A stretch of 64,000 bases of DNA from positions 553,138 through 617,137 of the forward strand of contig CBDDCY010000012.1 of the NCBI GenBank assembly GCA_965226435.1, given 5' to 3'. The stretch's first letter is position 1. Each line of letters opens with the position of its first letter. This DNA is from Bryobacterales bacterium. Lineage in GTDB: Bacteria; Acidobacteriota; Terriglobia; Bryobacterales; UBA6623. A program made the position numbers and the translations under genes. The notes below the pieces were generated by a model. The model ran no database searches. It was not told the origin of the DNA and worked only from the letters and a program-made list of their open reading frames with translations. Below, piece after piece: positions 5,180-22,476 of the stretch.

Positions 5180-6445
5180 TCACGACAAGACAAACGAGGT
5201 CTCTCGCCCGGCGGCGCGCGCCACGGCTTCGGCCGCCTGATAGCCGCTCCGCACGGCTCCCTCCATCGTTGCCGGCCAGCCGGTTCGGGTCCAATCGCCG
5301 GCGAGAAAAACATTCGGGTACTTCGTCGCCGTAGGCGGGCGGTGCGCCTCCAGGCCCGGGGCAATCGAATACGTCGCTCGGGCTTCCTTGATCACATGGG
5401 CCTTGACCAATTTGGCGTCGTGGGCCGCGGGGAAAAACTCGACCAGCTCCCGCCGCGCCGTTTCGATGATCGCCTCTCGGGACAGCGGCACCAAAGACCG
5501 CGAAGCGCTGACGACGCATTGCACATAGTTCGCCGACTTGCGAAACATCCACTGCATCGTGCGGTCGAGCAGGACGGCGTGAGGCAGATCGGTCACTTCG
5601 CGGTCGAACCAAAGATGAATTCCCGTGATCGGCGAATGCTCGAATTTCTCGAGTGGCAGCGCAAGTTCGGGAACAAGCGCATTCACGCGCTCAAACGGGA
5701 CGGCGCTTATGTAAAAGTCCGCCGCGCGATCGTTTGGGTCGATGCGCTCGACCGGCGAGCGCAAGTGAAAACGAACCCGCTCGCCAAACCTCTCCGCCGA
5801 CCCCGCCGAGTAAAGCTCGCCGAGCGGCACGGCGGGGATGCCCATTTCGTAGCTCTCACGTGTCGCCATCAAACCTTCCAAGAAGACCTGAAACGCCGGG
5901 CGAGCCGAGGCGCGCTCGGGATCTTCATTCAGCGCGCTCACCAGAATCGGCCTCCAAAAACGCTCGACGGCATTCCCCGCGGCTCCCTTCGACGCCAACC
6001 AATCAGCCATCGTGACGGTGTCGAGATCGGCCCGGTTTCGCTCACGCCGCATGGCGCCCAGCGCTCTGAAGATCGAGCGTTTGTCAGCGAAAGTCAGCCC
6101 CTTGAAACCGAGCAACGATCCGAGAAGATGCGCCGGCGCGGGCAGCCGGCCCGGTTTCAGGATATCCGTCGCGCCGCCGGGACGAACGAAGTACAACCGA
6201 TCATAGAAGCGAATCTTTTCTTCCACCCCGCCGCGCCGGTAGAAATCCAATAGGTTCGTAAAGCAGCGCAGCAAGACATGCTGGCAGTTGTCGATGTGTT
6301 CGGAATCTTCCGCGGCGGGGTTGAGGGGAAACGACGTCGCGCGGCCCCCGAGAAAGGGGCGTGCTTCGTGGAGCTCGATCTCGAAACCGATCGATCCAAG
6401 AGCGGCCGCGGCGGCCAGCCCGGCAAGCCCGCCTCCGACGATCAC
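5180..6445 (-). CDS. hpnE: Hydroxysqualene dehydroxylase (FAD-dependent amine-oxidase/phytoene-desaturase fold)
   Basis: N-terminal dinucleotide-binding motif VVIVGGGLAGLAAAAAL..ELHEARPFLGGRA. It lies directly downstream of hpnD and hpnC. I place the start at the GTG at 6445, overlapping the hpnD stop; the ORF-track Met at 6688 would overlap hpnD by 240 nt. Confidence 0.8.
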   Translation of the reverse strand: MIVGGGLAGLAAAAALGSIGFEIELHEARPFLGGRATSFPLNPAAEDSEHIDNCQHVLLRCFTNLLDFYRRGGVEEKIRFYDRLYFVRPGGATDILKPGRLPAPAHLLGSLLGFKGLTFADKRSIFRALGAMRRERNRADLDTVTMADWLASKGAAGNAVERFWRPILVSALNEDPERASARPAFQVFLEGLMATRESYEMGIPAVPLGELYSAGSAERFGERVRFHLRSPVERIDPNDRAADFYISAVPFERVNALVPELALPLEKFEHSPITGIHLWFDREVTDLPHAVLLDRTMQWMFRKSANYVQCVVSASRSLVPLSREAIIETARRELVEFFPAAHDAKLVKAHVIKEARATYSIAPGLEAHRPPTATKYPNVFLAGDWTRTGWPATMEGAVRSGYQAAEAVARAAGRETSFVLS

Positions 6446-7326
6446 TACGCGGGGTATGGCGGCGCTCCTCCGGTCAATCGCAGCTTCAGCGCTTGGACGA
6501 CGATCCACACCTTTTCGAAATCGCTCAATCGGGCGCGGCTCGTGAAGACATCGTAGCCGCGGCCGCGAATGCGCCGCAAGATACCGTAGTAGATCGAAAT
6601 CATGGCCCACAGCGAGGGGCGCCCGGTCGGGCTGACCATGCCGAGCAGCGGCGCGGCTTCGGCGTAATATCGGTTGGCGCGCTCCCACTCGAAGGCCATC
6701 AACTTTTCAAACCCTTCTCCCGGACGGCCCGCGAGCAAATCCTCGGCGCTGACTCCGAACCTTGCGAGGTCTTCCTGGGGCAGATAGATGCGTCCCATGC
6801 GGGCGTCTTCGGGAATGTCTCGCAGGATGTTGGTGAGCTGAAAGGCCACGCCGCATTTTTCGGCCAAGCGAAGCGCGTCAGGCGAGTCGAACCCCCAGAC
6901 GTGAATACAAGTCATGCCGACGACCGAGGCGACCTGATAGCAATAGCGGTAGAGCTCGTCGAAGGTCTTGGGCTGTCGCGGAACCAAGTCCGAGCCCACG
7001 CCATCGATCAGTTCGAAAAAATATTCGGGCGGAATACGGTAGCGTTTGACCGTGTCGTGAAAGGCGGGCAGGATCGGGTTGTCGCCGTAACGCCCTTCGA
7101 GCGCTTGTTGGAGTCCGTGTTTCCAATCGGCAAGCGCCGCGCGGCGAGCCGCTACCGGCGGTTCGGTCTCGTCGCTGATGTCGTCGGCGTACCGCATGAA
7201 CGCATAGATGGCGCACATGGCGGTCTTTTGTTCGCGGGGAAGCAGCACAAAGGAGTAGTAGAAATTCCTTGCCCGGCGGCGAGCGATGCGCCGACAATGC
7301 TCGTACGATTCTTCGAGGGGAGGCAT
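6445..7326 (-). CDS. hpnD: Presqualene diphosphate synthase (squalene/phytoene synthase family)
   Basis: SQS/PSY family motifs YAFMRYADDISDE and YCYQVASVVG..NILRDIPEDARMGRIYLP. Position between hpnC and hpnE. Confidence 0.85.
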   Translation of the reverse strand: MPPLEESYEHCRRIARRRARNFYYSFVLLPREQKTAMCAIYAFMRYADDISDETEPPVAARRAALADWKHGLQQALEGRYGDNPILPAFHDTVKRYRIPPEYFFELIDGVGSDLVPRQPKTFDELYRYCYQVASVVGMTCIHVWGFDSPDALRLAEKCGVAFQLTNILRDIPEDARMGRIYLPQEDLARFGVSAEDLLAGRPGEGFEKLMAFEWERANRYYAEAAPLLGMVSPTGRPSLWAMISIYYGILRRIRGRGYDVFTSRARLSDFEKVWIVVQALKLRLTGGAPPYPA

Positions 7327-7339
7327 AAAACTGCCTGTC

Positions 7340-8320
7340 CTAGATAGGGCTGATTTCCCGCGCCCGGGCCGGGTGGGTCAACAGCCTGCGCGTCGCCACG
7401 CGGAGCAACAGCGATAGCCGACCGACTTTGCCGAGTTTGGGCCGCTGTCTTATGGTGTCGTAGTCTTGGCGGCGAATCAACTCCAGAATCGCCAAGCCGC
7501 CGCGGCTGAATAGTTCCAGGTCCACCGCCAAGCGACGGTCGACTTGATCGGCCAACGGGAGCCCCTTGCGGAACAGTCGCTCGGCGTCGTCGACGAGGCT
7601 TCGAGTTATTGCCCGGAACTCGGGACGAGCCTGCCCGCGCTGTAAATCCTCGTCGAGCATGTCGAGCGAGTAGTGATGTGATTCCATGCGGTCGAGCGGG
7701 ATGTAGACTCGGTCGATCGCCCGGTCGCACGCGACGTCTTGCCAAAAGTTGGTCAATTGCAAGGCGGTGCAAGTGAAGTCGGAGAGGCGTCGTCGGTCGT
7801 CGTCGGTGTAGCCGCAAAGGTGCAGCACGAGCCGGCCGACGGGGTTGGCCGAATAGCGGCAATATTCCAGAAGCTGTTCGTCATTGGCGTAGCGGGTTAC
7901 GGATTGGTCTTGGACAAAGGCGCTAATCAAATCGGCAAAGGGCTCTTCGGGGATGTCGTGTTTTTTGACGGTTTCGCGGAGCGCCACGTAAACGGGATGC
8001 TTGGCCCGGCCGCTATAGAGCGCGGCCAGCTCTTCACGCCACCACCCGAGCAAAACCAGACTGCGCTCGGTGTCGCCCATCTCGTCGCCCAGGTCGTCCG
8101 CCCAGCGGCAGAAGGCGTAGACGTTGAAGAAATCCTGATGGAGATGCGCGGGCAGCAGCCGACTGACGAGCTGAAAGTTTTCATAGTGGGAGCGAGCCAG
8201 CCGCCGCGTGTAGTCGAGAGAATCGTCGAGAGACCAGGCGGGAAATTCCGTACCCACGGCTGCGACAAAATCAGCGGGCTGAAGGAAGGGTTTCACGACC
8301 GGTGCGGCAACTGGGGACAT
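7340..8320 (-). CDS. hpnC: Hydroxysqualene synthase (squalene synthase-like)
   Basis: Motifs YAFCRWADDLGDE and QLTNFWQDVACDRAIDRVYIP. The start is taken at the Met of MSPVAAPVVKPF (8320); the upstream 117 codons of the ORF are Arg/Pro-rich and look non-coding. Confidence 0.8.
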   Translation of the reverse strand: MSPVAAPVVKPFLQPADFVAAVGTEFPAWSLDDSLDYTRRLARSHYENFQLVSRLLPAHLHQDFFNVYAFCRWADDLGDEMGDTERSLVLLGWWREELAALYSGRAKHPVYVALRETVKKHDIPEEPFADLISAFVQDQSVTRYANDEQLLEYCRYSANPVGRLVLHLCGYTDDDRRRLSDFTCTALQLTNFWQDVACDRAIDRVYIPLDRMESHHYSLDMLDEDLQRGQARPEFRAITRSLVDDAERLFRKGLPLADQVDRRLAVDLELFSRGGLAILELIRRQDYDTIRQRPKLGKVGRLSLLLRVATRRLLTHPARAREISPI

Positions 8321-8373: not shown

Positions 8374-9435
8374 CTACGGCAGAATCGCTGTTTTCAGATG
8401 GCCGTTGTGGCTCATCATTTCGCGGAAAACCGAGAGCAGATCGGACAGCGGCGCTTCGTTGATGACGAAATCGGCCGAGCGCAGGTCGCGTCGGCGAATG
8501 ATTTCGAGGGCCTGGCGGATATGCCGCGGGGTGTGGTGGAAGCTCGACTTGAGCGTAACCTCGGAGTAGTGAATCAGCGAAGTGTCGATCGGTACGTGGC
8601 TGTTGCCGGGACAACCGCCGAAGAAGTTGACGGTCCCGCCGCCGCGCACCATCCCCATCGCCGCCTGCCAAGTATCGGGCGTGCCGACAGCTTCGATCAC
8701 GGCGTCCGCGCCGCGCCGCTCGTCGGTGAGGCCGCGCACTTGGGCCACCCAGTCGGCGCCGTCGGCGGCGATGACGAGTTCGTCGGCGCCCATGCGCTCG
8801 GCACGCTCAAGCTGCGTCGGGCGGCGGCCGATAGCAATCACGCGCGCGCCGCTGAGGTGCGCCAATCGCACGAACATCAGCCCGATCGGACCGAGCCCGA
8901 TCACCGCGACCGTGTCTCCTTCGTGAATCGCGGTTTCCTCAATGCCCCGCATTACGCACGCCAGCGGCTCGACCATCGCCGCGTCGCGATAGGCAACTCC
9001 GTCGGCGATCTCGTGGGTATTGCAAGCAACAATCGGTCCCGGAATGCGAACGTACTCCGCATAAGCGCCGTTATTGAACAGCAGGTTTTCACAAAGGTTT
9101 TGTTGATCCCGCGTGCAGGGATAGCACTGCCGGCAAGGCGCCGAATTGGCCGCGACCACTCGCTGCCCCACTTGGAAGTTTTCCACTTCCGAACCTACCG
9201 CCACGATGTCGCCCGCCAGCTCATGCCCCAGCACCGCCGGAGGCTGGATCATGCGCGCATGGTAACCCCGCCGAAACACCTTCAAGTCGGTGCCGCAGGT
9301 CAGAGCCACCTGAACCCTCACCAAGATGTCGTTGGGTCCCGCGGACGGCACGGGAACCGGCTCAATGCGGAGTTCCTCTTTGCCGTACAACATCGCGGCC
9401 ATCATGGTCTGTTTCACGTTCGAATTCCTCAACAA
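8374..9435 (-). CDS. Zn-dependent medium-chain alcohol/polyol dehydrogenase (MDR family), paralog 2
   Basis: Catalytic Zn ligand region CGTDLK...GHELAG, structural Zn cluster CRQCYPCTRDQQNLC, and Rossmann motif VIGLGPIGL. It is 12 nt downstream of paralog 1. The exact start is uncertain (MLRNSNV or MMAAMLYG). Confidence 0.8.
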   Translation of the reverse strand: MLRNSNVKQTMMAAMLYGKEELRIEPVPVPSAGPNDILVRVQVALTCGTDLKVFRRGYHARMIQPPAVLGHELAGDIVAVGSEVENFQVGQRVVAANSAPCRQCYPCTRDQQNLCENLLFNNGAYAEYVRIPGPIVACNTHEIADGVAYRDAAMVEPLACVMRGIEETAIHEGDTVAVIGLGPIGLMFVRLAHLSGARVIAIGRRPTQLERAERMGADELVIAADGADWVAQVRGLTDERRGADAVIEAVGTPDTWQAAMGMVRGGGTVNFFGGCPGNSHVPIDTSLIHYSEVTLKSSFHHTPRHIRQALEIIRRRDLRSADFVINEAPLSDLLSVFREMMSHNGHLKTAILP

Positions 9436-9447
9436 ACGCTTGCGCCG

Positions 9448-10530
9448 TCAATTCTGCGGATGCACCACCAGCTTCAGAGAACCATTGACGGGATGACGCG
9501 CCAACTCGATCCCATGCTCCAACTCGCCCAAGGGCAGACGATGCGATATCAGCTCTTCGACCGGGAAGTCGTCGCGCCACACGATTTCCGCCGACTCTTG
9601 CTGCAAATCAATCGCGGCGCTATAGGACCCGAAGACGGTGCGCTCCTGGGCGCAAATCGCCGCGCCCGACAACTCAAACGTTTCCCGCGACGAGGTCTGC
9701 GCGAAAAGCATCACGCGGCCTCCGGGCCGTGAAGCTTCGATCGCCTTCTCGACAATCCGGGGCGCCGAAGCGGCCACGATGACGAGATCGGCGCCGCGCC
9801 CCGCGGTCTTGGCGGCCAACTCCGCGGCCAGGTCGGTTTCCAGTGGATTCCAGCATTCGACGGCGCCCATCCGCCGCGAAGCCTTGATACGCGGCTTCAA
9901 GACGTCGGTCGCGAAAACCTGCTCCACGCCCGCCTGCCCGAGCAGCATCGTAAACAGCAGCCCGATCGGGCCCTGCCCCATGACAAGGACGGTCTCGTCG
10001 CGGGCGACGTCACACTGCCGCAAAGCTTTCAAGCAGGTATTCACTGGTTCCACGAAACTGGCGCGGTCGAAACTGATATCGTTGGGAATCTTCACGACGC
10101 CGCGCCGCGCGATCCAATCCATAACCTTGACGTACTGCGCGAAGCCGCCCCCGGCCGGCTCGAATCCGGCCGTCACGCCGACTTTCTTGTAGGTCGCGCA
10201 CTGTGCGTAGTTGCCGTGCTCGCAATAGAAACAATCGAGACACGGCACATGGTGGAACAAGCAAACCCTGTCGCCCGGCGCGAGATCCCGCACCTCATCA
10301 CCGGTGCGCGCGACCACGCCGGCGGTTTCATGCCCAAAGACGCGCGGCGGCGGAAGCAGGTCGTATTCAATCTTTTTCAAATCCGTATGACAAATGCCGC
10401 AGGACTCCACGCGCACCAACAACTCGCCGGATCCGATTTCGGGGACCGGAAGCTGTTCCAAATGGACACGACTCGAGCCTCGATAAACCGAAGCTCCCAT
10501 CGAATCCGGCACCGCTAAAGCACTCATCAT
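9448..10530 (-). CDS. Zn-dependent medium-chain alcohol/polyol dehydrogenase (MDR family), paralog 1
   Basis: Motifs CGICHTDLK...GHETAG, structural Zn cluster CLDCFYCEHGNYAQC, and VMGQGPIGL. The start codon at 10530 directly abuts the hpnG stop (10531-10533). Confidence 0.8.
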   Translation of the reverse strand: MMSALAVPDSMGASVYRGSSRVHLEQLPVPEIGSGELLVRVESCGICHTDLKKIEYDLLPPPRVFGHETAGVVARTGDEVRDLAPGDRVCLFHHVPCLDCFYCEHGNYAQCATYKKVGVTAGFEPAGGGFAQYVKVMDWIARRGVVKIPNDISFDRASFVEPVNTCLKALRQCDVARDETVLVMGQGPIGLLFTMLLGQAGVEQVFATDVLKPRIKASRRMGAVECWNPLETDLAAELAAKTAGRGADLVIVAASAPRIVEKAIEASRPGGRVMLFAQTSSRETFELSGAAICAQERTVFGSYSAAIDLQQESAEIVWRDDFPVEELISHRLPLGELEHGIELARHPVNGSLKLVVHPQN

Positions 10531-11250
10531 CTACACGTCAAATTTCGCGCGGCTGAAAAACGCCGCCAACGCAACGGCCGCCAGCTCGGAGTCGGCCTTG
10601 AGCCGTCGCAAGCTCTTCCAACAACGCGGGCGCGCTATGATTTGGGCCGCCACGCGCCAACCCGAAAACGTTCCGTCGGATCGTCGCGCCCGATTAAGGT
10701 CGATCGGGAATGACGCCTCGGCCTCATCACTGATCACGCGGACGCAGAAAAACGGCAATTTCCGTGCCGCGGCTTCCGCTGCAACCGCCGAGGCTTCCAT
10801 CTCGACGGCATCCGCCCTGAGTCTAAAAAGCTCCCTTTTTCCGCGAGCCGTTTGGACAACCTCATCGACGGTCAACAAAGAGCCGTGCGCAGGCTTCCGC
10901 CCTCCCGACCAAGTCGGTAACTTTACAGCATACTCCAGTCGCGGCTCGCGCTGTATGACACGTGTGGCAATGAAAACGTCCGCAAGAGAAAGTGTTTCAG
11001 CGAGGGCACCCGCGAATCCAGTCGAAATCACGGCTGCAACCGGCTGCTCGGCGCACGCGCGGCGCACAGCACACCCCGCGTTTTCTCGCCCCGGCCCGTG
11101 GGCGACGAGCAAGGCCGGACCCGCCCTCAAGGTAGTTCGCGCTTTCCAACGAAGCCCGGCTGGGGACGTCGACGGTTCGACGTCAGGGAACGCCGCGAAC
11201 TCCCGCCGGTCGGCCCCGACGACTAGCAATACCGGTTGTTCTGAAACCAT
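10531..11250 (-). CDS. hpnG: Hopanoid-associated nucleosidase/phosphorylase (PNP_UDP_1 family)
   Basis: About 240 aa phosphorylase-family protein (LLVVGADRREF..., EMEASAVAAEAA motif). It is flanked by hpnA and overlaps its 3' end by 28 nt. Confidence 0.7.
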   Translation of the reverse strand: MVSEQPVLLVVGADRREFAAFPDVEPSTSPAGLRWKARTTLRAGPALLVAHGPGRENAGCAVRRACAEQPVAAVISTGFAGALAETLSLADVFIATRVIQREPRLEYAVKLPTWSGGRKPAHGSLLTVDEVVQTARGKRELFRLRADAVEMEASAVAAEAAARKLPFFCVRVISDEAEASFPIDLNRARRSDGTFSGWRVAAQIIARPRCWKSLRRLKADSELAAVALAAFFSRAKFDV

Positions 11251-12272
11251 CGAATCGCTCGCTCGAGAGCTGCTTCCAGCGGCCCGCCCGCGAAGCCGAT
11301 TTCCCGCTCGGCCTTCGCGGACTCCACAAACATTTTCTTGCGGGCCATGCGGACGGCATCGAGCGGTGCGCGCGGCGGTCGGCCGGTGAGCCGGGCGGCG
11401 GCGGTCGAGACAGCCCCATAAGCATAGGCCGCGGCGTAGGGAATGCGGATCTTCGGCGCGGGCCGGCCGCTGATCGTCGACAACGCCTCGAAGATCTCCC
11501 GCAGCGTCATGTTTCGTCCGCCCAATATGTAACGCTCCCCGCTCACGCCTTGTTCCATGGCCGCCAAGTGACCGCGGGCAACATCACGAACATCGACCAT
11601 ATTCAAGCCGGTGTCGAGATAGGCCGGCATTGCGCCCCTGAGGAAATCGACGATGATTTGCCCCGTCGGCGTTGGCTTGCGGTCGCCCTCGCCAACCGGC
11701 GCCGTGGGGTTGACGACGACGACGGGCAATCCGTCGGCCGCGAATTCCAGCGCGACTTGCTCCGCTAGAAATTTGGAGCGCTTGTAGGCTCCTTCCATTT
11801 CCGATAGTGAGACAGGCGTGTCTTCGTTGCCCGATTCGGCGGTGCCCGGTACGCCGATGCAGCCGACCGTCGAGGTGTAGACGACGCGCTTGACGCCGGC
11901 GGCGCGGGCCGCCTGAAGAATGTTTCGGGTGCCCTGGACATTCGAGGCGTAAATTTCAGCCGGGTTCGGCGCCCACAACCGATAATCCGCGGCGACGTGG
12001 AATAGCTCGGTGCAGCCGTCGATCGCGGTTCGAAGCGACGCCGGGTCGCGCAGATCGCCGATCACCGGCTCGACCGCAAGATCCACGATACCCGCGCGGT
12101 CGCTCGACGGCCGCACCAAAGCTCGGACCGAGCGACCTTCGTCCACCAACAGGCGGGCGATGTGGGAGCCGAGGAATCCTGAAGCGCCGGTAAGGAACGT
12201 CACAATGCGCGGGAGCGGAACTGCCGGCACGCTGCATCCCGTACGCCGACCTAGGGATTGCGCGGCCTTCAA
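11223..12272 (-). CDS. hpnA: Hopanoid-associated NAD(P)-dependent sugar epimerase/dehydratase-family protein
   Basis: SDR extended-family motif FLTGASGFLGSHIARLL and catalytic YxxxK (YKRSKFLAE). Cluster position. An alternative downstream start is possible. Confidence 0.7.
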   Translation of the reverse strand: MKAAQSLGRRTGCSVPAVPLPRIVTFLTGASGFLGSHIARLLVDEGRSVRALVRPSSDRAGIVDLAVEPVIGDLRDPASLRTAIDGCTELFHVAADYRLWAPNPAEIYASNVQGTRNILQAARAAGVKRVVYTSTVGCIGVPGTAESGNEDTPVSLSEMEGAYKRSKFLAEQVALEFAADGLPVVVVNPTAPVGEGDRKPTPTGQIIVDFLRGAMPAYLDTGLNMVDVRDVARGHLAAMEQGVSGERYILGGRNMTLREIFEALSTISGRPAPKIRIPYAAAYAYGAVSTAAARLTGRPPRAPLDAVRMARKKMFVESAKAEREIGFAGGPLEAALERAIRWFQNNRYC

Positions 12273-12347
12273 CCATACGTTTTCAAACCTACCGGCCCCG
12301 GCGAGCGATAGAATCGAGCGAACTTTTTCCGCTCCAACCCGGATGTG

Positions 12348-12812
12348 CTAGCACGCACCAGGGTTCTCGTTGGGATTGATAACCTCGATACCCTCCGCCA
12401 TTGCCGCATCCAGTAACTCGTCATCAGCGCAAACGAAAGAGAATCCTTGAACGCCCACTCCGGTGCTTAGAGCGATGCAGCCGGCTAGTTGCATCGCGTC
12501 GTAGGCGCGAAGGGGATGACGGGCGATGATTGCAACCGCCTCTTCCAGGACCGACGCCGTCAAGGGCTGGACGAGAAACAAGCCTTGCAGGTCGGAATCC
12601 AGTTGTGTCAGAACATTGGCAGCTTCAGCACTCGAAACGTCTCCTCCCCGTTCCCGGCGGCGGACCGCCGAATGAAACTCCACTCGGGACACTTCGAGGA
12701 TCGCAAAGTGATCGCGCTCGGGGTCTCGCAACAAATCAGCAACCCGGCCCGACCCGATTTCTTGAATGTAGAGCTTTGCGAGCGCGCTTGTGTCCAAATA
12801 GTAGACCGCCAA
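12348..12812 (-). CDS. vapC: PIN-domain ribonuclease toxin (VapC-like)
   Basis: N-terminal YYLDTSAL (first acidic residue), plus ILEVSRVEF and RAYDAMQLA acidic positions. 154 aa. TTG start immediately after the TAA stop of the upstream ORF. Confidence 0.75.
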   Translation of the reverse strand: MAVYYLDTSALAKLYIQEIGSGRVADLLRDPERDHFAILEVSRVEFHSAVRRRERGGDVSSAEAANVLTQLDSDLQGLFLVQPLTASVLEEAVAIIARHPLRAYDAMQLAGCIALSTGVGVQGFSFVCADDELLDAAMAEGIEVINPNENPGAC

Positions 12813-13529: not shown

Positions 13530-13660
13530 CTACATATCTCATTTAAATTAAGTCGTTTAGAGTATTAACTCAGTCGATCGGAGACTGCGACCGCCAGATA
13601 TTCTCTTATATTGTATATAAAGGTTTATAGAGTTAATATTTCGATCTTACCAGCCGCGCC
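13530..13660 (-). promoter_or_regulatory. AT-rich promoter/operator-like region upstream of the TA module
   Basis: A strikingly AT-rich stretch in a GC-rich genome (ttaaattaagtcgtttagagtattaactc ... ttgtatataaaggtttatagagttaatatttcg). It contains the direct repeat TAGAGT(A)TTAA at 13558-13569 and 13628-13639. Confidence 0.4.
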
Positions 13661-13800
13661 CAGCGGTCGTCAAGCCCAGCACGATAGAGAGATCCCGGCA
13701 GGTTCGCGGAATGGTTCGCGCGGCGGGGGCCCGGCATTCCGGCGGTATCGCCTTGGGCCGCGCAAAAAGCAGGGCCGAGCACCGGCCGCGAGGAGGAGTC

Positions 13801-15042: not shown

Positions 15043-16986
15043 CTACAGCGCCTTGGCGTACTCGGCCATGGCCAGTAACGGAAAATACTGCCGATAGAGA
15101 TCGTACTTCAAATAGAAAACGCCGGGGAAACCGGTTCCGGTGTAGTTCCATTCGCTCCACGAGCCGTCGGGACTCTGTGTTTCGAGCAAGTAACGGATCC
15201 CCGCCTCGACGCTGCCCGAGCGATTGTCTCCCGAGGCCAACAGTCCCAGCAACGCCCATGCCGTCTGTGAGGCCGTGCTCTCTCCCTCGGTCTTCTGTCT
15301 GGGATCATCGTACCCGGCGCAGCTTTCTCCCCAACCGCCGTCGGCGTTCTGGATCGAACGCAGCCATTCCCCGGCGCGGATGATGTAGGCCTCGCGGGGA
15401 TCCTCGCCCGCCGCCGCCAAACCCCGTAGAGCGAAACACGTGCCGTAGATATAGTTCACACCCCAACGCCCGAACCAGCCGCCGTCGTCTTCCTGCGTTC
15501 GTTTGAGAAACTCGACTCCCCGCCGCACGGCCGGATGGGACTCTCCCGGGCCGACCGTGCATAGCGCGTCCAAAACCCGCCCGGTCAAATCCGGGCAGGT
15601 CGGGTCGAGCATCGCGTTGTGGTCGGCGAAGGGAACATGGTTGAACAGGCGATTGTTGTTGTCCACGTCAAACGCGCCCCAACCGCCGTCCTTCGACTGC
15701 ATGCTGAGCAGCCATTTCACTCCGCGCCGTACGGCCGCGCGTTGAGCATCGAGGTTCGTCGCCTTGGCATGGCTCAACGCCAAAAGCACCTGCGCGGTGT
15801 CGTCGGTATCGGGATAAAACTCGTTCGCGAATTCGAAGTACCAGCCTCCCGGCTCGCCTGCTCGGTTTCTCACCGCCCAGTCGCCCGGCCGGCGCACTTC
15901 CTTCGTCAGCAACCAGTCGGCCGCGCGGCGCAAAGCCCCGCCGACCTCTTCGGAAGGATTCGGGAAAGCCGTTCCGACGGCGGCCGCCGCCAAGCCCGTG
16001 TCCCACACCGGCGACAGGCAGGGCTGTAGGCGCATCGTGCCGCTGTCGTCGTCGCCCTGCTCGATGATCAGCTCGTCGAACTTCTCGATCTGTCGCCGCA
16101 GCAACGGGTCGTCAAGCCCGTAGCCCAGCTCGGTCAGCGCCATGATGCAATTCATCATGGCCGGGAAGATCGCGCCCAGCCCGTCGGAATGCTCAAGCCT
16201 TTCGATCATCCAACGCGATGTGGCGCGAACCGCCTTGCGGCGCGCCCTTCGAATCCCAACGCGTTCCCAAACCTTGAGCGCGCGGTCGGCCAATAAGAAG
16301 AGATTGCCGGGGTCAAACAGATTGCCTTGCGCCCGCTGAGCATCCTTCGAAAGCTCATCCAAATCAATACCCGTCGGCATGGGGCGAGAAGCTCCCAACG
16401 CGCCCAAAATCGCCAACGGAGCGATAATGGCGCGCGTCCATGACGACATGTCATAGACGCTGAACTTGGCTTTGTCGGGAAGCAGGAATAGCTCGGGGGG
16501 GATCGTCGGCGTCTTGGCGCGGTCGTAGAGCCCGAAGAAACTTAGATAAATCTTGGTATAGCTGTTGGTCGCCTCGACGCCGCCCAACTGGAGAATCCGC
16601 CGCTTGGCGTGAACCAGCCGCTCGTCGTCGGCGCCGTACCCGGTTAGCCGCAGGGCCAGATAGGCCTTGACCGAAGCGCTGACATTCACCGGCCCGCCCG
16701 GATAGATGTTCCAACCGCCGTCGGGAAGCTGCCGGCTGAGAATGTAGCGGGCGGCCCGTGCGATTCGATCGACGGTCGGAGGCCCCCAAGACCCCGCTCG
16801 GGGCGGGTAGAGCCACAATTGCAGCAGGATGTAGTCGGATTCAAGCGAGGTGTCGGCTTCCAGTTCACCGATCCACCAGCCGCCGGGCGACTGGCGGGCG
16901 AGCAAGCAGCCGGCGGCCGCGCGCACGGCCGAGTGGATCTCGGAATGTCGATCCGGAGCGAGAGTTTGTACCGCCGCTGTACTCAA
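15043..16986 (-). CDS. shc: Squalene-hopene cyclase
   Basis: 647 aa. Catalytic DxDDTA motif (YPDTDDTAQVLLAL). Repeated QW-type motifs (QSPDGSWSEW, QNADGGWGES, QEDDGGWFGRWG, QSKDGGWGAF). Confidence 0.95.
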   Translation of the reverse strand: MSTAAVQTLAPDRHSEIHSAVRAAAGCLLARQSPGGWWIGELEADTSLESDYILLQLWLYPPRAGSWGPPTVDRIARAARYILSRQLPDGGWNIYPGGPVNVSASVKAYLALRLTGYGADDERLVHAKRRILQLGGVEATNSYTKIYLSFFGLYDRAKTPTIPPELFLLPDKAKFSVYDMSSWTRAIIAPLAILGALGASRPMPTGIDLDELSKDAQRAQGNLFDPGNLFLLADRALKVWERVGIRRARRKAVRATSRWMIERLEHSDGLGAIFPAMMNCIMALTELGYGLDDPLLRRQIEKFDELIIEQGDDDSGTMRLQPCLSPVWDTGLAAAAVGTAFPNPSEEVGGALRRAADWLLTKEVRRPGDWAVRNRAGEPGGWYFEFANEFYPDTDDTAQVLLALSHAKATNLDAQRAAVRRGVKWLLSMQSKDGGWGAFDVDNNNRLFNHVPFADHNAMLDPTCPDLTGRVLDALCTVGPGESHPAVRRGVEFLKRTQEDDGGWFGRWGVNYIYGTCFALRGLAAAGEDPREAYIIRAGEWLRSIQNADGGWGESCAGYDDPRQKTEGESTASQTAWALLGLLASGDNRSGSVEAGIRYLLETQSPDGSWSEWNYTGTGFPGVFYLKYDLYRQYFPLLAMAEYAKAL

Positions 16987-17084: not shown

Positions 17085-18083
17085 TCATAGATTAGCGATT
17101 TGAGTCAGTTCGCCTTGATGCCCGGCCAACTCCGAAGGCAGCGGAAAACTGACGTCTTCCTCAATCACTTCGACTTCCTCGACCCGCGAAAACCCGAATC
17201 GCGCAAGCTCGTCCACGATACCCCGAACCAGCACTTCCGGCGCCGACGCTCCGGCCGTCACCGCGACGCGCCTGACTCCGCTGAACCACTCCTCGTCGAG
17301 TTGCGACTTGTCGTCGATCAGATGTCCGAGCACGCCCAGGTTTTCACCCACTTCGACAAGCCTTCTCGAATTCGAGCTGTTTTGCGAGCCCACGACCAAT
17401 AGCAAGTCGGCTCGCGGCGCGACGCGCTTCACCGCTTGCTGACGGTTTTCGGTGGCGTAACAGATATCCTTCGCCGGCGGCCCCTGAATGTCGGGGAAGC
17501 GCCGCCGCAACACTTCGATGATGACCCCGGCCTCGTCGAGGCTCAGCGTCGTCTGCGTCAAATAATAGACGTTGGCCGGGTCGGGGACCTCGACCTGCCG
17601 CGCTTCCTCGGGCGACGAGACAACGATAGTGCGCTCCGGGGCCTCTCCCATCGTCCCGATCACTTCGTCATGGTCGCGGTGGCCGATCAGCAAAATCGTA
17701 CCCCGCGTCGCGGCGAAGCGGACGGCTTCCAAATGAACTTTCGTCACCAGCGGACAAGTCGCGTCGATCACTTGCAAGCGTCGCCGCTCGGCCTGTTCAC
17801 GGACCTCGGGCGCGACGCCGTGGGCGCTGTAAACCGCGCGTCCGCCTTCGGGAACCTCATCGAGTTCGTCCACGAAAACCGCGCCGCGCGAAGCCAGGTC
17901 GCTGACGACGTGGCGATTGTGGACGATCTCTTTGCGGACATAAATCGGCGGTCCGTAGACCTGTAGGGCCAGCTCGACAATGTCGATTGCGCGCACCACG
18001 CCGGCACAAAATCCGCGCGGCTTGAGCAGATAGACGATCTTTTCGCCACCGTTTACCCAAGTGGGGGAAACGTTTTCAGCCAT
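17085..18083 (-). CDS. ispH: 4-hydroxy-3-methylbut-2-enyl diphosphate reductase
   Basis: LytB family motifs: PRGFCAGVVRAI, SAHGV, ATCPLVTKVH, VVGSQNSSNS. The start is taken at MAENVSP (18083). Confidence 0.9.
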   Translation of the reverse strand: MAENVSPTWVNGGEKIVYLLKPRGFCAGVVRAIDIVELALQVYGPPIYVRKEIVHNRHVVSDLASRGAVFVDELDEVPEGGRAVYSAHGVAPEVREQAERRRLQVIDATCPLVTKVHLEAVRFAATRGTILLIGHRDHDEVIGTMGEAPERTIVVSSPEEARQVEVPDPANVYYLTQTTLSLDEAGVIIEVLRRRFPDIQGPPAKDICYATENRQQAVKRVAPRADLLLVVGSQNSSNSRRLVEVGENLGVLGHLIDDKSQLDEEWFSGVRRVAVTAGASAPEVLVRGIVDELARFGFSRVEEVEVIEEDVSFPLPSELAGHQGELTQIANL

Positions 18084-18216: not shown

Positions 18217-19371
18217 TTAACCCCCGTTGTGCATCCGTCCCGCCCGGTCGAGACGGTATCGCCGCCCCGCCCACTCGACGCGGTTCCCGAGAAAACTCGC
18301 GCACCAAACCCCGAACGCGAAAAGGTCGGCCACGAAAATCCAATGACCCCGCCGATCGACCAATTCGGACCCTAGCGCCCCCCGACCGACCGACCAAGCC
18401 GCGACTCCCCGCAGCGCCAGGCAAATCAGCGCCGCGACCGCCGCCGGGGCCTGATTCCCCGCCAACCCGAGAGTCGCGAGGCTCCAGACCGTGCCGTGTG
18501 TGAAGAGCAGCCCCGCATGTCCCCAAGGCCGCGAAACGCGCACCGTGCGCGACCACCGCAGCCAATGCCGCCCGACGTCGCGCCACCCCGCATCCGGCAC
18601 AACGGTTTCCACCACGCGCCGGGCCAAGACAACGCGCCGACCTTGCGCGGCCAGCCGACTTCCCAATTGGTAGTCATCAGCCAAGAACGGCCGCAGCGCC
18701 TCGAAGCCGCCAAGGGCATCGAGGTCGGCGCGGCGAAGCGCCATCGTCGCGCCCAACGCAAAGCGCATCCCTTGGAAACCGCGCGCCGCCAGCACCTGCC
18801 CTTGAAACTCCGTCGACACCCACAGAGCTTCGAGCAATGACGCAAAGCCCTGGGCGGGGCGGGCGCGGTACAAGCAGCTCACCAGACCGACCGCGGGGTC
18901 ATCCAACTCGGCGACAACTTCCCGGAAATAACCCGACTCGACGGTGATATCGGCGTCGTTGACCAAAAATACGTCGTGGTGGGCGCGGCGCGCCAGTTCC
19001 TCGAGCCGCCATACCTTGGCGTTGCCCGCGGGCGCGGGTCCGCACACAACGATCTCGATCGGACGGTCGGAAAATTCGGCGGCCAAGCGAGAGACCACCG
19101 CAACGGCCGGGTCGTCAGCCGTCTCGACACCGAAAAGCAGCTCGAACTCGGGATAGTCCTGTGTAGCGTGCGCTCGGAGGTTTTCTTCCAACGACCCGCC
19201 GTTGCCCTGGAGAGGCTTGAGCACCGACAGCGCCGGAGTCGCTCCGCCGACACGCGGCCCGCCGCGCCAAAAGCGCCACGCAAGCCATGTGACCGCCAAG
19301 TAATGGAACGACGCGCAAACCGTCAAAGCGACGGCAACGAACGAGAGAGGATCGCTCACCAACTCCGTCAC
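18217..19371 (-). CDS. hpnI: Hopanoid glycosyltransferase (GT21/ceramide-glucosyltransferase-like)
   Basis: N-terminal TM helix, then SVLKPLQG...QDYPEFELLFGV, a D-x-D region (LVNDADI), and C-terminal TM helices. It lies directly downstream of ispH and shc. Confidence 0.65.
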   Translation of the reverse strand: MTELVSDPLSFVAVALTVCASFHYLAVTWLAWRFWRGGPRVGGATPALSVLKPLQGNGGSLEENLRAHATQDYPEFELLFGVETADDPAVAVVSRLAAEFSDRPIEIVVCGPAPAGNAKVWRLEELARRAHHDVFLVNDADITVESGYFREVVAELDDPAVGLVSCLYRARPAQGFASLLEALWVSTEFQGQVLAARGFQGMRFALGATMALRRADLDALGGFEALRPFLADDYQLGSRLAAQGRRVVLARRVVETVVPDAGWRDVGRHWLRWSRTVRVSRPWGHAGLLFTHGTVWSLATLGLAGNQAPAAVAALICLALRGVAAWSVGRGALGSELVDRRGHWIFVADLFAFGVWCASFLGNRVEWAGRRYRLDRAGRMHNGG

Positions 19372-19378: not shown

Positions 19379-19741
19379 CTACGTGGAAACCAACATCACG
19401 CCGCAGGTTACCAACAACGCACCCGCCCAGCGCCGCCGGGAGATCGCTTCTCCCAAGACCGTTCTCGCCAGCAACATCTCGACCACGTAACCCGCCGCCG
19501 TCGCCGGTACGGCGAAGCTGACGTCGGCGATCGAAAGCAGCGCCATGAACGCAAAGAACGACAGGGCATAGCCGACCAGCGAAAGCCAAATCACCGCGGA
19601 GCCCCCGACGCGGCGCGCCTCGCGCGCCAGCGACCGCGGACGAAAATCGTCGATCAGTCCCAAGCGCCGCATCCCGGCGGCTTTCAGGAGATCGCCGGCG
19701 ACCGTCCCCCCGACAACCAACAGCAGCAAGAAGAACTTCAA
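19379..19741 (-). CDS. Small EamA/DMT half-transporter (4 TM), ArnE/ArnF-like
   Basis: 120 aa and hydrophobic, with 4 predicted helices. Its start overlaps the upstream paralog by 4 nt, and its stop is 7 nt from the hpnI start. Confidence 0.6.
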   Translation of the reverse strand: MKFFLLLLVVGGTVAGDLLKAAGMRRLGLIDDFRPRSLAREARRVGGSAVIWLSLVGYALSFFAFMALLSIADVSFAVPATAAGYVVEMLLARTVLGEAISRRRWAGALLVTCGVMLVST

Positions 19742-20145
19742 GCCGCGCCGCCTGGGGGTCGATCAGCCGTTGACGCCGGGGTCGATCCGACCACGCCCAC
19801 CCCGAAGGTAATCAGCACCGTCCCGGCCCAACGTGCGGCGGAAACGGTTTCTCCGAGCACCAACCAACCGAGCACCGCGACCAGTACGTACCCGATCGAC
19901 GTCACCAGCAAGACATAGCTGAGGTCGGCCCGACTCAGCACCAAGGCGTGAGCGACGAAGAAAATCAGCAGCAGGACGACGCCCGCCGTCACCCAGGGGT
20001 TGATGAACGCCCGCAGCCCCCCTTGAACCATGGCCAAGGGAGAGTAAGAGGCGATGTCACCCACCTGTTGCATGCCGTAACCGAGCACGATGTTGCCCGC
20101 GGCGTTCGTGACGATCACGATGAGCAGAAGGTAGGCGGTTTTCAT
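19738..20145 (-). CDS. Small EamA/DMT half-transporter (4 TM), ArnE/ArnF-like
   Basis: 135 aa with 4 predicted helices (MKTAYLLLIVIVTNAAGNIVLGYGMQ...). Paralog of the downstream gene. Confidence 0.6.
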   Translation of the reverse strand: MKTAYLLLIVIVTNAAGNIVLGYGMQQVGDIASYSPLAMVQGGLRAFINPWVTAGVVLLLIFFVAHALVLSRADLSYVLLVTSIGYVLVAVLGWLVLGETVSAARWAGTVLITFGVGVVGSTPASTADRPPGGAA

Positions 20146-20172
20146 GGTGACCGGATCGAGCCGCGGCTCCCA

Positions 20173-20276
20173 GGGGCTGTGAAAAAATGGGAGTCCACTT
20201 CGCGCCGGATGCGGTTACTGATTCAATGGAACTTATTCGGTCGGCGCTCGGGACAGCCCCATTTTTTCACAGCCCC
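20173..20276 (-). repeat. MITE-like palindromic repeat, copy 1 (inverted relative to copies 2 and 3)
   Basis: Termini ggggctgtgaaaaaatggg...cccattttttcacagcccc. Its reverse complement aligns along the full length with the copies at 46313-46421 and 48847-48954. Confidence 0.85.
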
Positions 20277-20329
20277 GAGGGCACGGCTTCAGAGGGTCGT
20301 TATTGTAGCGAGTCGCAAAGAGCCGCGGG

Positions 20330-21178
20330 CTACACCTCGTCCAAGCACGAAAGCCACCAGGGGTGCATGCCGTTGTATTGCAACTTTTCGGGGATATGCT
20401 CGAAACGGTCACAGGCCTGGGCGACTTCCTCTTTCGTGACGATCCCCTCTCGAATGGTCTCGAGCAAGGCGTCTTTCCAAACTCCCGTCAGAGGATGTTC
20501 CGGGTAGCGCCAGGGCTGCGTGCGTTGCCTCGTGTAGTGCAGCAGGCGCGTCTTCCCCGGCTCGTATTCGTTGAGGTGGTTCCAATAGTGCGTGATCTCT
20601 TGAGGACGAAACTTGAGCAGATACCCCACCTGGGCCGCGCCATACCGCTTGCGCTCCTCCTCTTGGGGGCCCGTCTTGATGAAGGTTCGGATTTCCTCGA
20701 CCGTGGGCCAGATCCCGCGGGCCTTCTCGCAATCGATCAGCATTACGGAAGCCTCGGGGTACCCCTTTCGATAGGTACACCACATGCAGCTTTCCTGATC
20801 GGGATATTGGCTGTCGATTTCCCAGGGTTCGCGAATATCACCGAAAACCATTTGGTCGGCATCGAGATAGATGGCCCAGCCCTGGTAGTCGCGGTACTCG
20901 GGGATGCGCCAGCGTTGAAACGAAAAGCCTGTCGCGGCGCCGAAGTCCCGAAGTTCCGGGCTATCGGTAAGGTGGTGAAATTCGATTTGCGCGGAATCCG
21001 CGGCGTGTTTGCGAATCGAATGCTCCAGAATTTTCCGAGGAATTTCGGCACACTCTTCGGTGCCGATGCAGACATGAATGGGCAATTCAACCACTCGCTT
21101 GGCCGCGCCCGCCGACTTCCGCCATTTTTTGATCAACGAGGAGAACACGGTAGAATTGTACCGTACAAAAACCAACAA
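20330..21178 (-). CDS. GT8-like glycosyltransferase
   Basis: DxD motif in IYLDADQMVFGDI, and LLHYTRQRTQPW resembling the GT8 C-terminal H..KPW region. 282 aa. It is the first gene of the minus-strand array. Confidence 0.55.
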   Translation of the reverse strand: MLVFVRYNSTVFSSLIKKWRKSAGAAKRVVELPIHVCIGTEECAEIPRKILEHSIRKHAADSAQIEFHHLTDSPELRDFGAATGFSFQRWRIPEYRDYQGWAIYLDADQMVFGDIREPWEIDSQYPDQESCMWCTYRKGYPEASVMLIDCEKARGIWPTVEEIRTFIKTGPQEEERKRYGAAQVGYLLKFRPQEITHYWNHLNEYEPGKTRLLHYTRQRTQPWRYPEHPLTGVWKDALLETIREGIVTKEEVAQACDRFEHIPEKLQYNGMHPWWLSCLDEV

Positions 21179-21396
21179 TTGAGCACGAAAACAACACTGT
21201 CACGCCGTCGCAACTCCGCGCGGCCGGCAGGTCGTGATTGGGCGGGTACGGCCGGAGTCGAAGGCGGCCCGCGCCGCGCCGCGGCCAAAGCAAACTATTA
21301 CCTTTGTCCTATGACCTTTCGGGAGTTGACGACGCGCCGAGGCGCAACCGGCGAGTCCGCCTGAAACCGCATGGTATTCTGTTGTTCATTGTTGTT

Positions 21397-22476
21397 ATGA
21401 ATTCGTGCATTTACTCCGGGTTTCAATGGCTGACACGCTCGGGAATTCAAAGATCGTCCGGCGGGACCTCACGCTTCTACCACACCGAGGCTGGCAAGTA
21501 CGCCAGCATTTCCACCGCCGCCACCAGCTACTTCGTCAGCGGCTTGCTGCAGAGCTCCGAAGTCGACCCGGACGCTGCTGTCGAATGCGCCCAGGCCGCG
21601 GGCCGCTTCTTGTTGGACCAAGCCTTCGACGAGGAAGCCGGTCTATTCCGTCACGAGGTGGTGGAAGAGGGAGACTTGCACCCTTGGTCCTATCTCCTCG
21701 ATTCAACCGCCGGCGTGCGGGCGTTGATCGACCTCTGGAAGGCGACCCAAGAGCCCGCTTATGCCGAGAAGGCCGAGCGTTGCGGGATTGCCATTAAGGA
21801 GAACCTATCCCGGATGGATGGGTCTTTCTTTCCGGTCTTTGACCTGGCGCGGCAAATGCCGTACGAAGCGGACGAGCCTTGGTGGCAGCAACCGGGGGTG
21901 TATCACCTCAAGTCGGCGCTGGCGTTCCGGGTGCTCGCCGATGCGGTGGGCTTACACGAGTTCAAGGCGATGTCGGATGATCTGTTGCAGTGGTGCCTCA
22001 AGCGGCATGAGGGCTTCGCCGAGCCCGAGTCGACCGCCGAAATGACGATGAGCCGTCTGCATGCCTATTGCTATTTCCTCGAAGGGCTGTTGCCCGAGGT
22101 GGGTCTGGAGCCCGACTGCAGCCGGGCGCTGCAATTTGGCATTCTCGAAATCAAAAACCTTTCCCAGGACGTGGGTCACGAGTTTCAGCGCTGCGACGTG
22201 CTGGCGCAACTGCTGCGTCTGCGTCTGTTCGCCGATCAGCTCGGGATCATGGAACTCGACCACCAGCAGGCGGGCAACGAAGCGGCCGCGATCGAAGAGT
22301 TTCAACGGCAATCCTCGACTCCCGAAATCGACGGCGGCTTCGCCTTCGCGCGGAAGGACAGCCAGCTGACGCCGGACGGAAACACGACGGCGACCATCTT
22401 TTCCCTGCAAGCCTTGCAAATGTGGGAACAAGCTTCCACCGGGACGTTCCGTCAAGGCTGGGAAACGCTTATCTAG
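21397..22476 (+). CDS. Hypothetical protein, possibly alpha/alpha-toroid (prenyltransferase/terpene-cyclase-like repeat) fold
   Basis: A clean 360-aa ORF from MNSCIYSGFQWL. The segment DGGFAFARKDSQLTPDGNTTATIFSLQALQMW resembles the DGGF...T..AL repeat of toroid proteins. No DxDD motif. Divergent from the GT8 gene. Confidence 0.4.
   Translation: MNSCIYSGFQWLTRSGIQRSSGGTSRFYHTEAGKYASISTAATSYFVSGLLQSSEVDPDAAVECAQAAGRFLLDQAFDEEAGLFRHEVVEEGDLHPWSYLLDSTAGVRALIDLWKATQEPAYAEKAERCGIAIKENLSRMDGSFFPVFDLARQMPYEADEPWWQQPGVYHLKSALAFRVLADAVGLHEFKAMSDDLLQWCLKRHEGFAEPESTAEMTMSRLHAYCYFLEGLLPEVGLEPDCSRALQFGILEIKNLSQDVGHEFQRCDVLAQLLRLRLFADQLGIMELDHQQAGNEAAAIEEFQRQSSTPEIDGGFAFARKDSQLTPDGNTTATIFSLQALQMWEQASTGTFRQGWETLI

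Follow-up and report, generated by a model that had tools for sequence, protein, structure and literature searches.

The 64,000-nucleotide stretch of DNA analysed here (the window) comes from a Bryobacterales bacterium (assembly GCA_965226435.1, contig CBDDCY010000012.1, positions 553,138 to 617,137) and carries an hpn biosynthetic supercluster of the Bryobacterales (Acidobacteriota subdivision 3), which probably encodes the route from farnesyl diphosphate (FPP) to glycosylated bacteriohopanetetrol (BHT). The cluster is a canonical, ordinary acidobacterial hopanoid supercluster, and the additional genes in and beside it are of several kinds. Four are conserved hpn companions, namely two zinc-dependent alcohol dehydrogenases (ADH1 and ADH2) and two EamA half-transporters; one is a GT8 glycosyltransferase swapped into the slot of hpnJ; two belong to a passenger insertion; and one is a neighboring gene. 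ADH1-ADH2 is an ancient two-gene unit that lies between hpnG and hpnC throughout the Bryobacterales and stays with hpnG when the cluster fragments.

Organization and core genes of the hpn supercluster

Sixteen successive open reading frames (ORFs) run from 21178 down to 5180, in a window with a GC content of about 62%. A preliminary description of this DNA had placed all genes of this interval on the minus strand, which holds for 16 of 16 ORFs, and had called their junctions very short or overlapping, which holds in part: overlaps reach 28 nt, but the refined junctions span -28 to +271 nt, with gaps that include 184, 133, 98, 123, 271 and 144 nt. NCBIfam profile scores were judged against the curated cut-offs, and Pfam was used for the accessory genes. 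The core genes that had been named from the sequence (hpnC, hpnD, hpnE, hpnG, hpnA, hpnH, shc, ispH and hpnI) were all recovered as NCBIfam best matches, and are listed here in order of transcription.

18217..19371, minus strand: hpnI, GT2 glycosyltransferase for BHT (TIGR03472, 321.8 bits against a cut-off of 310)
17085..18083, minus strand: ispH, last step of the methylerythritol phosphate (MEP) pathway (NF002189, 451 bits against 444)
15043..16986, minus strand: shc, squalene-hopene cyclase (TIGR01507, 657 bits against 431)
13801..14919, minus strand: hpnH, radical S-adenosylmethionine (SAM) adenosylhopane synthase (TIGR03470, 421 bits against 225)
11223..12203, minus strand: hpnA, hopanoid-associated short-chain dehydrogenase/reductase ("sugar epimerase"; TIGR03466, 471 bits against 368)
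10531..11250, minus strand: hpnG, adenosylhopane nucleosidase/phosphorylase (best match TIGR03468, 111 bits, under the cut-off of 187)
7340..8320, minus strand: hpnC, hydroxysqualene synthase (TIGR03464, 322 bits against 250; ATG at 8320)
6445..7326, minus strand: hpnD, presqualene diphosphate synthase (best match TIGR03465, 266 bits, slightly under 279)
5180..6445, minus strand: hpnE, hydroxysqualene dehydroxylase (TIGR03467, 452 bits against 283)

The hpnG gene overlaps hpnA by 28 nt and abuts ADH1, a position that is kept in 75 of 80 relatives (vide infra), and hpnD is flanked by hpnC and by hpnE, whose GTG start at 6445 shares 1 nt with the hpnD stop. The predicted three-enzyme squalene synthesis (HpnC, HpnD and HpnE) and a squalene-hopene cyclase are thus present. 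By family membership, HpnD, HpnC and HpnE would convert FPP to squalene, Shc would form diploptene, HpnH adenosylhopane and HpnG ribosylhopane, and HpnI would glycosylate BHT. HpnA and IspH are likewise assigned by family membership.

Start codons were refined against the gene calls of close relatives. The longest-ORF coordinates proved too long at the N-terminus for hpnE (5180-6688), hpnC (7340-8671), ADH2 (8374-9435), hpnA (11223-12272), ispH (17085-18140) and a divergently transcribed barrel protein (21238-22476), and these extensions produced spurious overlaps such as that between ADH2 and hpnC. The relatives' calls place the six starts at 6445, 8320, 9405, 12203, 18083 and 21397, respectively; the ATG at 18083 agrees with the 332 amino acids of ispH in the closely related locus L083. 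Scans of 5000-22600 for promoters and terminators gave numbers that match those expected from shuffled sequence, and such elements were therefore not used for defining transcription units. An Rfam scan of the whole window found nothing.

A conserved pair of zinc-dependent dehydrogenases

Acidobacterial hopanoid clusters have previously been described by Sinninghe Damsté et al. 2017 (PMC5462960), who listed five accompanying genes, ug1-ug5, with the function "not established"; Table S1 of that work gives ug1 as a Zn-ADH of ~370 aa and ug2 as a Zn-ADH of ~350 aa. The two dehydrogenases of the window match ug1 and ug2 by annotation, size and position.

9448..10530, minus strand: ADH1 (matches ug1), zinc-dependent polyol/threonine-dehydrogenase-like medium-chain dehydrogenase/reductase (MDR), Pfam ADH_N and ADH_zinc_N, NAD-type signature Asp209
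8374..9405, minus strand: ADH2 (matches ug2), zinc-dependent MDR, Pfam ADH_N and ADH_zinc_N, NADP-type signature Gly-Arg-Arg

A scan of a genome collection with an ADH1 alignment detected more than 580 relatives, of which the best 80 (59-88% identity) were examined by mapping every window protein onto their loci with tblastn. All are labelled as Bryobacterales, Solibacteraceae or other acidobacterial metagenome-assembled genomes (MAGs), bar one that was binned as Verrucomicrobiia (L068). The usual gene order in these 80 loci is ispH-shc-hpnH-hpnA-hpnG-ADH1-ADH2-hpnC-hpnD(-hpnE), with ADH1 in 80/80, ADH2 in 77/80, hpnG in 75/80 and hpnC in 67/80. The supercluster of the window recurs as such in its two nearest relatives, L003 (88%) and L083. 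Ten loci retain only hpnG-ADH1-ADH2, with flanks that otherwise share nothing and no hpnCDE within 10 kb.

Beyond this set, a search of 1.8 billion representatives yielded about 10 full-length clusters at 40-48% identity, followed by a continuum of generic Zn-ADHs, and the gene neighborhoods of five such distant relatives were inspected. A soil contig (L161) contains hpnA-hpnG-ADH1-ADH2 at 46-55% identity. In an Armatimonadota MAG (GCA_028871815.1; L159, 8946-16323), an ADH1-like gene and an ADH2-like gene with Gly-Arg-Arg are followed by hpnC-hpnD-hpnE, and hpnG is missing; a threonine-aldolase-like pyridoxal phosphate enzyme precedes the pair there, in place of hpnG. A marine mesopelagic contig from TARA (L162, 5530-7688) carries an ADH1-like/ADH2-like pair at 40% and 43% identity, and hopanoid genes were not found within 5-10 kb of it; a broader or more ancient function of the two enzymes is possible. 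On a cyanobacterial contig, a single ADH homologue at 40% stands by itself. What is conserved across these contexts is the pair as a unit, which in at least two phyla is linked to hpnG, to hpnCDE or to both. A gene of the fatty-acid-hydroxylase family that lies near the pair in L002 and L159 was considered as a recurrent partner and rejected, as the L159 copy has no relative in the other loci.

At the sequence level, the two proteins are only 28% identical, and are thus old paralogs. The catalytic residues C44/H67/E68/E161 and the structural cysteines C97/C100/C103/C111 of ADH1 are invariant, and its orthologs conserve Thr-Asp/Glu at the end of β2. In ADH2, the TCGTD, GHE and EPLAC motifs and the four structural cysteines are conserved in about 78 orthologs (TCGTD in 78/78), and all of the motif variants that were listed for 78 orthologs have Gly-Arg-Arg. 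In MDR proteins, an acidic residue at the end of β2 indicates NAD, and Gly-Arg-Arg indicates NADP; ADH1 is accordingly predicted to be of the NAD type and ADH2 of the NADP type. Among proteins of solved structure, those closest to the pair are threonine, sorbitol, xylitol and galactitol-1-phosphate dehydrogenases and an NADP-dependent ketose reductase (1e3j). Neither protein reached a curated equivalog cut-off, the best scores being about 160 bits against 380-458 (L-threonine 3-dehydrogenase/sorbitol dehydrogenase).

EamA half-transporters and the hpnJ/hpnI module

Two short membrane proteins of the EamA/drug-metabolite transporter (DMT) type, each with four transmembrane (TM) segments, are encoded directly ahead of hpnI.

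19738..20145, minus strand: EamA/DMT 4-TM half-transporter a, 135 aa (Pfam EamA, 26.8 bits)
19379..19741, minus strand: EamA/DMT 4-TM half-transporter b, 120 aa (Pfam EamA, 34.7 bits)

The two genes overlap by 4 nt, and the second ends 7 nt before hpnI. Each product has four hydrophobic segments, as read from the sequence, and the two probably form a heterodimer. They probably correspond, by size and description, to ug4 (hypothetical, ~130 aa) and ug5 (transporter, ~140 aa) in Table S1 of PMC5462960.

A metagenome scan with HpnI detected 68 contigs, and counts were restricted to contigs whose HpnI is at least 40% identical and that extend far enough upstream. EamA halves lie directly upstream of hpnI in 24 of 26 informative contigs, and hpnJ lies ahead of the EamA halves in 13 of 15. 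An hpnJ-EamA-EamA-hpnI arrangement also heads the full supercluster in L001 (687-4077), L017 and L029, and the two observations together indicate that the EamA pair is integral to the hpnJ/hpnI module. The pair is upstream of hpnI in L003 and L083 as well. The four-gene module is widespread in soil and peat metagenomes (L087-L140), where it is mostly followed by neither ispH nor shc. The metagenome contigs were also inspected for a deacetylase downstream of hpnI; the recurrent neighbors are an adenylate kinase and an O-methyltransferase, and were judged incidental.

A GT8 glycosyltransferase in the position of hpnJ

The first gene of the operon encodes a glycosyltransferase, as had been read from the sequence, and this assignment is sustained by Pfam, motifs and fold.

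20330..21178, minus strand: GT8-family (retaining GT-A) glycosyltransferase (Pfam GT8, 25.2 bits against 24.3, marginal)

The D106xD108 motif, H214 and Q221-P222-W223 (H..QPW) are invariant, and the AlphaFold2 (AF2) model, with a predicted local distance difference test (pLDDT) score of 88, has its best Foldseek matches in the GT8 folds 3tzt, GlyE, LgtC and glycogenin. The subfamily is small, with 47 homologues in 5.8e9 proteins. One of these, at 85% identity, is at the operon head of L083 in the same position and orientation. The segment in question (~20162-21365, 1.2 kb) has a GC content of 0.567, and the closest genome, L003, has 80 nt in its place. In other relatives this slot is occupied by hpnJ, and GT8 is seen with hpn genes only in the window and L083; it was thus recruited to the hpnJ slot in a two-genome subclade.

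The GT8 enzyme may add an α-linked second sugar to the product of HpnI, a proposal that is advanced tentatively. It is a serious possibility, if short of a probable one, that GT8 is instead a surface-glycan transferase, for lipopolysaccharide (LPS) or exopolysaccharide (EPS), that lies beside the operon by chance, in which case the product would be HpnI-glycosylated or plain BHT. The rarity of the family, the low GC content, the 184-nt gap to the next gene and the lack of GT8 in L003 are consistent with that reading, as are the more distant homologues, which belong to surface-glycan clusters: those at 34-37% identity are found in glycan clusters (with GT29, GT2 and an ABC exporter) or on an unannotated contig. 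Set against it are the shared orientation and operon-head position in two genomes that are about 15% apart and the placement exactly at the hpnJ site of relatives. The replacement of hpnJ by GT8 is the only feature that hints at an altered glycosylated bacteriohopanepolyol (BHP), and it is confined to the two-genome subclade.

Genes missing from the window and the expected product

The preliminary description had also pointed out that hpnJ, hpnK and hpnO are absent from the window, and this was confirmed: a profile scan for hpnJ/K/O/N/L/M/B/P/R found none among the 30 other window ORFs. No aminotransferase family that could represent HpnO was found among the window ORFs, and tblastn gave no match in the window for the HpnJ of L001 or for a resistance-nodulation-division (RND) transporter encoded beside a relative's cluster. 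Of the cyclitol-ether branch, the window thus has HpnI, and HpnJ (a B12-dependent radical SAM protein) and HpnK (a deacetylase) were not found in it. In L001, a 6.9-Mb Bryobacterales chromosome, a DUF1761 gene and two RND (ACR_tran/MMPL) transporters follow hpnE (15468-21113); these transporters are possible HpnN analogues and have no counterpart in the window.

Acidobacteria of subdivisions 1 and 3 have hpnI and hpnJ and lack hpnK (Sinninghe Damsté et al. 2017, PMC5462960), so the absence of hpnK here is ordinary. Subdivision 3 strains in culture contain BHPs that are almost exclusively tetrafunctionalised. HpnI would add a hexosamine on the cytoplasmic face, and it is proposed that, with no HpnJ or HpnK, this product is not turned into a cyclitol ether (for HpnI, HpnK and HpnJ, the functions follow a 2025 study). 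A 4+4-TM EamA heterodimer would then flip the HpnI glycolipid to the outer leaflet. By analogy with ArnC, ArnE and ArnF, such flipping of glycosylated BHP is conceivable and perhaps somewhat less than probable. We know of no account of how glycosylated hopanoids cross the inner membrane. The end product is most likely BHT that carries the sugar added by HpnI; GT8 may lengthen this head group, and the EamA pair may flip the lipid.

Proposed role of the dehydrogenase pair

According to the 2025 study, the enzyme that turns ribosylhopane into BHT "has not yet been established", and a 2026 review gives the step as "predicted nonenzymatic"; oxidation to ribonylhopane has been postulated without an assigned gene. 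Sinninghe Damsté et al. 2017 (PMC5462960) proposed HpnA, and not ug1 or ug2, for ribosylhopane reduction. A search over a limited literature collection found no later functional proposal for hopanoid-linked Zn-ADHs. From sequence and gene order, there is close to an even chance that the two dehydrogenases follow HpnG directly and work on the BHP side chain. ADH2, as the NADP-type enzyme, would reduce the open-chain C-35 aldehyde of ribosylhopane to BHT. Ribosylhopane reduction in cell-free preparations is said to be NADPH-dependent (a result credited to Bodlenner et al. 2015). ADH1, as the NAD-type, polyol-dehydrogenase-like enzyme, would carry out a coupled oxidation, either from the lactol to ribonylhopane or by way of a C-34 keto intermediate or epimerisation. 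The narrower claim, that ADH2 is specifically a ribosylhopane reductase, is doubtful.

Several observations weigh against this interpretation of the locus. Chloracidobacterium thermophilum lacks ug2 and yet produces both BHT and BHT cyclitol ether (PMC5462960), and alphaproteobacterial hpn clusters show no candidate dehydrogenase (2025 study), so the ADH pair cannot be a universal reductase. The genomes of subdivision 1 have ug2 linked to hpnC and ug1 to hpnG (PMC5462960); this split, the Armatimonadota pair without hpnG and the marine pair mean that the link to the side chain is not exclusive. The predicted cofactor preferences come from sequence rules. The half-transporters had been called ArnE/F-like, and two EamA halves are indeed present, but EamA b scores 28.9 bits against the NCBIfam ArnF profile (cut-off 99) and 23.3 bits against ArnE (cut-off 92), far below either, and the two are predicted to be ArnE/F-like at best and not members of the ArnE/ArnF family. 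The hpnJ, hpnK and hpnO genes could be encoded elsewhere in the genome, outside the window. Finally, the roles suggested for all accessory genes are candidate roles, drawn from sequence and context.

The main rival for the dehydrogenases is a role in the squalene branch with HpnC, HpnD and HpnE, with farnesol/farnesal, hydroxysqualene or a related alcohol as the substrate. Gene order provides several arguments for it: ADH2 is directly upstream of hpnC in 67 of the 80 loci, the Armatimonadota MAG has ADH1-ADH2-hpnC-D-E without hpnG, ug2 precedes hpnC in subdivision 1 (PMC5462960), and shc and hpnH are both missing from eight loci with the order ispH-(hpnG)-ADH1-ADH2-hpnCDE. However, HpnC, HpnD and HpnE suffice for squalene synthesis in Escherichia coli, according to work that is cited in PMC5462960, and 10 loci keep hpnG-ADH1-ADH2 without hpnCDE within 10 kb. 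The soil contig with hpnA-hpnG-ADH1-ADH2 points the same way, and both dehydrogenases belong to the polyol/threonine-dehydrogenase branch, the members of which act on hydrophilic polyols. The squalene-branch role is accordingly considered unlikely, and action on the side chain is preferred. A scheme that combines ADH1/ADH2 as the enzymes from ribosylhopane to BHT, the EamA pair as the first dedicated flippase for glycosylated hopanoids, and GT8 in place of hpnJ yielding a hitherto undescribed diglycosyl-BHT rather than the cyclitol ether is improbable.

A passenger insertion and a divergent barrel protein

Between hpnH and hpnA, the window contains a strain-specific insertion of about 1.58 kb with two ORFs.

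12217..13797, minus strand: strain-specific insertion of ~1.58 kb between hpnH and hpnA (51 nt in L083 and ~180 nt in L003)
12813-13529, minus strand: 238-aa ORF of no family (no Pfam, PADLOC or PDB match)
12348-12812, minus strand: PIN-domain protein (PF01850, 36.3 bits against 23.6; nearest solved structure PAE0151)

The PIN gene starts directly after the stop of the 238-aa ORF, with a gap of 0 nt. The insertion has a GC content of 0.57-0.58 and a third-position GC content (GC3) of 0.61-0.63, compared to a GC3 of 0.73-0.83 in the cluster. The PIN module is thus a foreign, toxin-antitoxin-like passenger insertion and not a hopanoid gene. The earlier label of toxin-antitoxin module is plausible and only half supported, as the PIN toxin is present but an upstream antitoxin of a recognized family was not found. 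A PADLOC scan of the module found nothing, and the insertion edges show only chance-level repeats of 10-17 nt, with no target-site duplication and no terminal inverted repeats. The inserted segment holds a terminator-like hairpin immediately behind the hpnH stop (13773-13787, minus strand) and, upstream of the 238-aa ORF, a promoter-like site (13644-13673, minus strand). The insertion might split the operon transcriptionally, although such patterns occur at chance frequency in the region.

Upstream of the operon, on the opposite strand, is a gene that had been taken for a divergent toroid-like protein.

21397..22476, plus strand: (α/α)6-barrel protein, 359 aa, with a fold like that of N-acylglucosamine 2-epimerase (AGE) and cellobiose 2-epimerase (ATG at 21397, not 21238)

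The protein has no Pfam match. Its AF2 model (pLDDT 93) resembles 3wkg, 8h1l and others in Foldseek, with template modeling scores of 0.65-0.72. An (α/α)6 barrel on the opposite strand is therefore correct, but a toroid of the terpene-cyclase or squalene-hopene cyclase type was rejected: the 50 listed Foldseek matches are AGE-family epimerases and isomerases and glycoside hydrolases, with no cyclase among them. The window, L003 and L083 are the only loci in which the barrel gene adjoins the operon, and homologues at 51% and 42% identity are in unrelated contexts. It is probably a divergently transcribed neighbor and not a pathway member. An AGE-like barrel lies beside a QueF gene in L083 (8436-9724) and in a distant relative, L155 (8001-9806), and this adjacency in both a close and a distant relative suggests that the barrel belongs to a different conserved neighborhood.

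With these genes accounted for, the proposal of the preliminary description can be weighed as a whole. It had held that at least seven additional genes jointly indicate a tailoring pathway to an undescribed functionalised BHP, and it is true that all but one of them are on the same strand inside the operon, that hpnJ/K/O were not found in the window, and that GT8 is a real glycosyltransferase at the operon head. However, the conservation patterns differ widely. The ADH and EamA pairs are linked to hpn genes, the former across the order and in a second phylum and the latter normally in the company of hpnJ and hpnI, and being lineage-wide they are uninformative on the specific product of this organism. 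GT8 is linked to hpn genes in two genomes only, the PIN module with its foreign composition is present only in the window, the barrel is not hpn-linked in other genomes, and hpnK is normally missing in subdivisions 1 and 3. A joint pathway is thus largely refuted by synteny and is very unlikely, and only GT8 hints at an altered product. Least credible of all is the view that the ADH and EamA pairs are passengers with housekeeping functions, unconnected with hopanoid biology, as their generic annotations (e.g., L-iditol 2-dehydrogenase), the marine contig with the ADH pair but no hpn genes and the lone 40% homologue in the cyanobacterial contig stand against an ADH linkage that is kept over 80 species, two phyla and cluster fragmentation, and an EamA-hpnI linkage in 24 of 26 contigs.

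Surroundings and significance

Mobile elements abound in the DNA beyond the hpn operon. Four insertion sequence (IS) transposases are encoded at 27545-28825 (plus strand), 37557-38690 (plus), 50124-51175 (minus) and 55311-56552 (plus), and belong to ISNCY (384 bits), IS481-like, IS630 (split in two adjacent ORFs) and IS256 (314 bits) families. Closer to the operon are genes for a secreted protein of 816 aa that has a weakly matched M6-metalloprotease domain and ends in a poly-glycine/lysine tail (22562-25012, minus) and for a 613-aa protein with weak matches to decahaem c-type cytochromes (DmsE/GSU2203-like; 25283-27124, minus). A GT2 glycosyltransferase gene followed by two tandem SAM-methyltransferase genes (DVU_1556-like) is found at 39058-41777 (plus), and is possibly a small glycan-modification operon. 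Two Gfo/Idh/MocA oxidoreductases that resemble glycoside 3-dehydrogenase or inositol 2-dehydrogenase are encoded at 51999-53306 and 58623-60731 (both minus).

Geohopane biomarkers derive from bacteriohopanepolyols, a major class of membrane lipids. The ADH pair and the EamA pair are concrete candidates for the step from ribosylhopane to BHT and for hopanoid flipping, respectively, and the replacement of hpnJ by GT8 suggests that head-group chemistry differs between close acidobacterial relatives. Such variation matters for the reading of BHP signatures in soil and peat. Given that the cluster is ordinary and that the associations were partly published in 2017, the gain is a sharper hypothesis and not a new system.

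Comparison with known clusters and enzyme families

Sinninghe Damsté et al. 2017 (PMC5462960) divided the acidobacterial hopanoid genes into clusters A (ug2-hpnC-D-E), B (ispA-shc-hpnH-ug3) and C (hpnA-hpnG-ug1), which are concatenated in Terracidiphilus gabretensis. The window shares with these clusters the order hpnA-hpnG-ug1 followed by ug2-hpnC-D-E, the association of shc-hpnH with an isoprenoid gene, and the lack of hpnK. It differs in that the isoprenoid gene is ispH rather than ispA, in having GT8 in the place of hpnJ, and in the PIN module between hpnH and hpnA. Proteobacterial hpn clusters have the same core of hpnC/D/E, shc, hpnH, hpnG and hpnI, whereas the window is without hpnK, hpnJ, hpnO and hpnN, and neither a Zn-ADH pair nor an EamA pair is described for them (2025 study).

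Among the individual proteins, ADH1 and ADH2 share with MDRs of the polyol-dehydrogenase branch the catalytic Cys/His/Glu, the four structural cysteines, and the Rossmann fold with GxGxxG, at about 30-35% identity as judged by eye from two alignments; they differ in being a dedicated NAD-type/NADP-type pair that is tied to hpn genes. The EamA genes resemble arnE and arnF in being adjacent, overlapping genes for 4-TM half-transporters of the EamA/small multidrug resistance (SMR) type beside a GT2 enzyme that glycosylates a membrane lipid (ArnC in the latter case). ArnE/ArnF is an undecaprenyl-phosphate-aminoarabinose flippase, whereas the substrate here would be a glycosyl-hopanoid.

The GT8 protein has the GT-A fold, the DxD motif and the C-terminal H..(K/Q)PW of LgtC, RfaJ-type LPS transferases, glycogenin and GlyE, but is only 10-17% identical to such enzymes, with a template modeling score of about 0.5, and belongs to a rare subfamily of 47 sequences. 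To our knowledge, a hopanoid-operon context is undescribed for GT8. The barrel protein, lastly, shares its (α/α)6 fold with the AGE superfamily (N-acylglucosamine 2-epimerase, cellobiose 2-epimerase and YihS isomerase); the likeness is one of predicted fold at 9-16% identity, and its synteny with hpn genes is limited to three close relatives.

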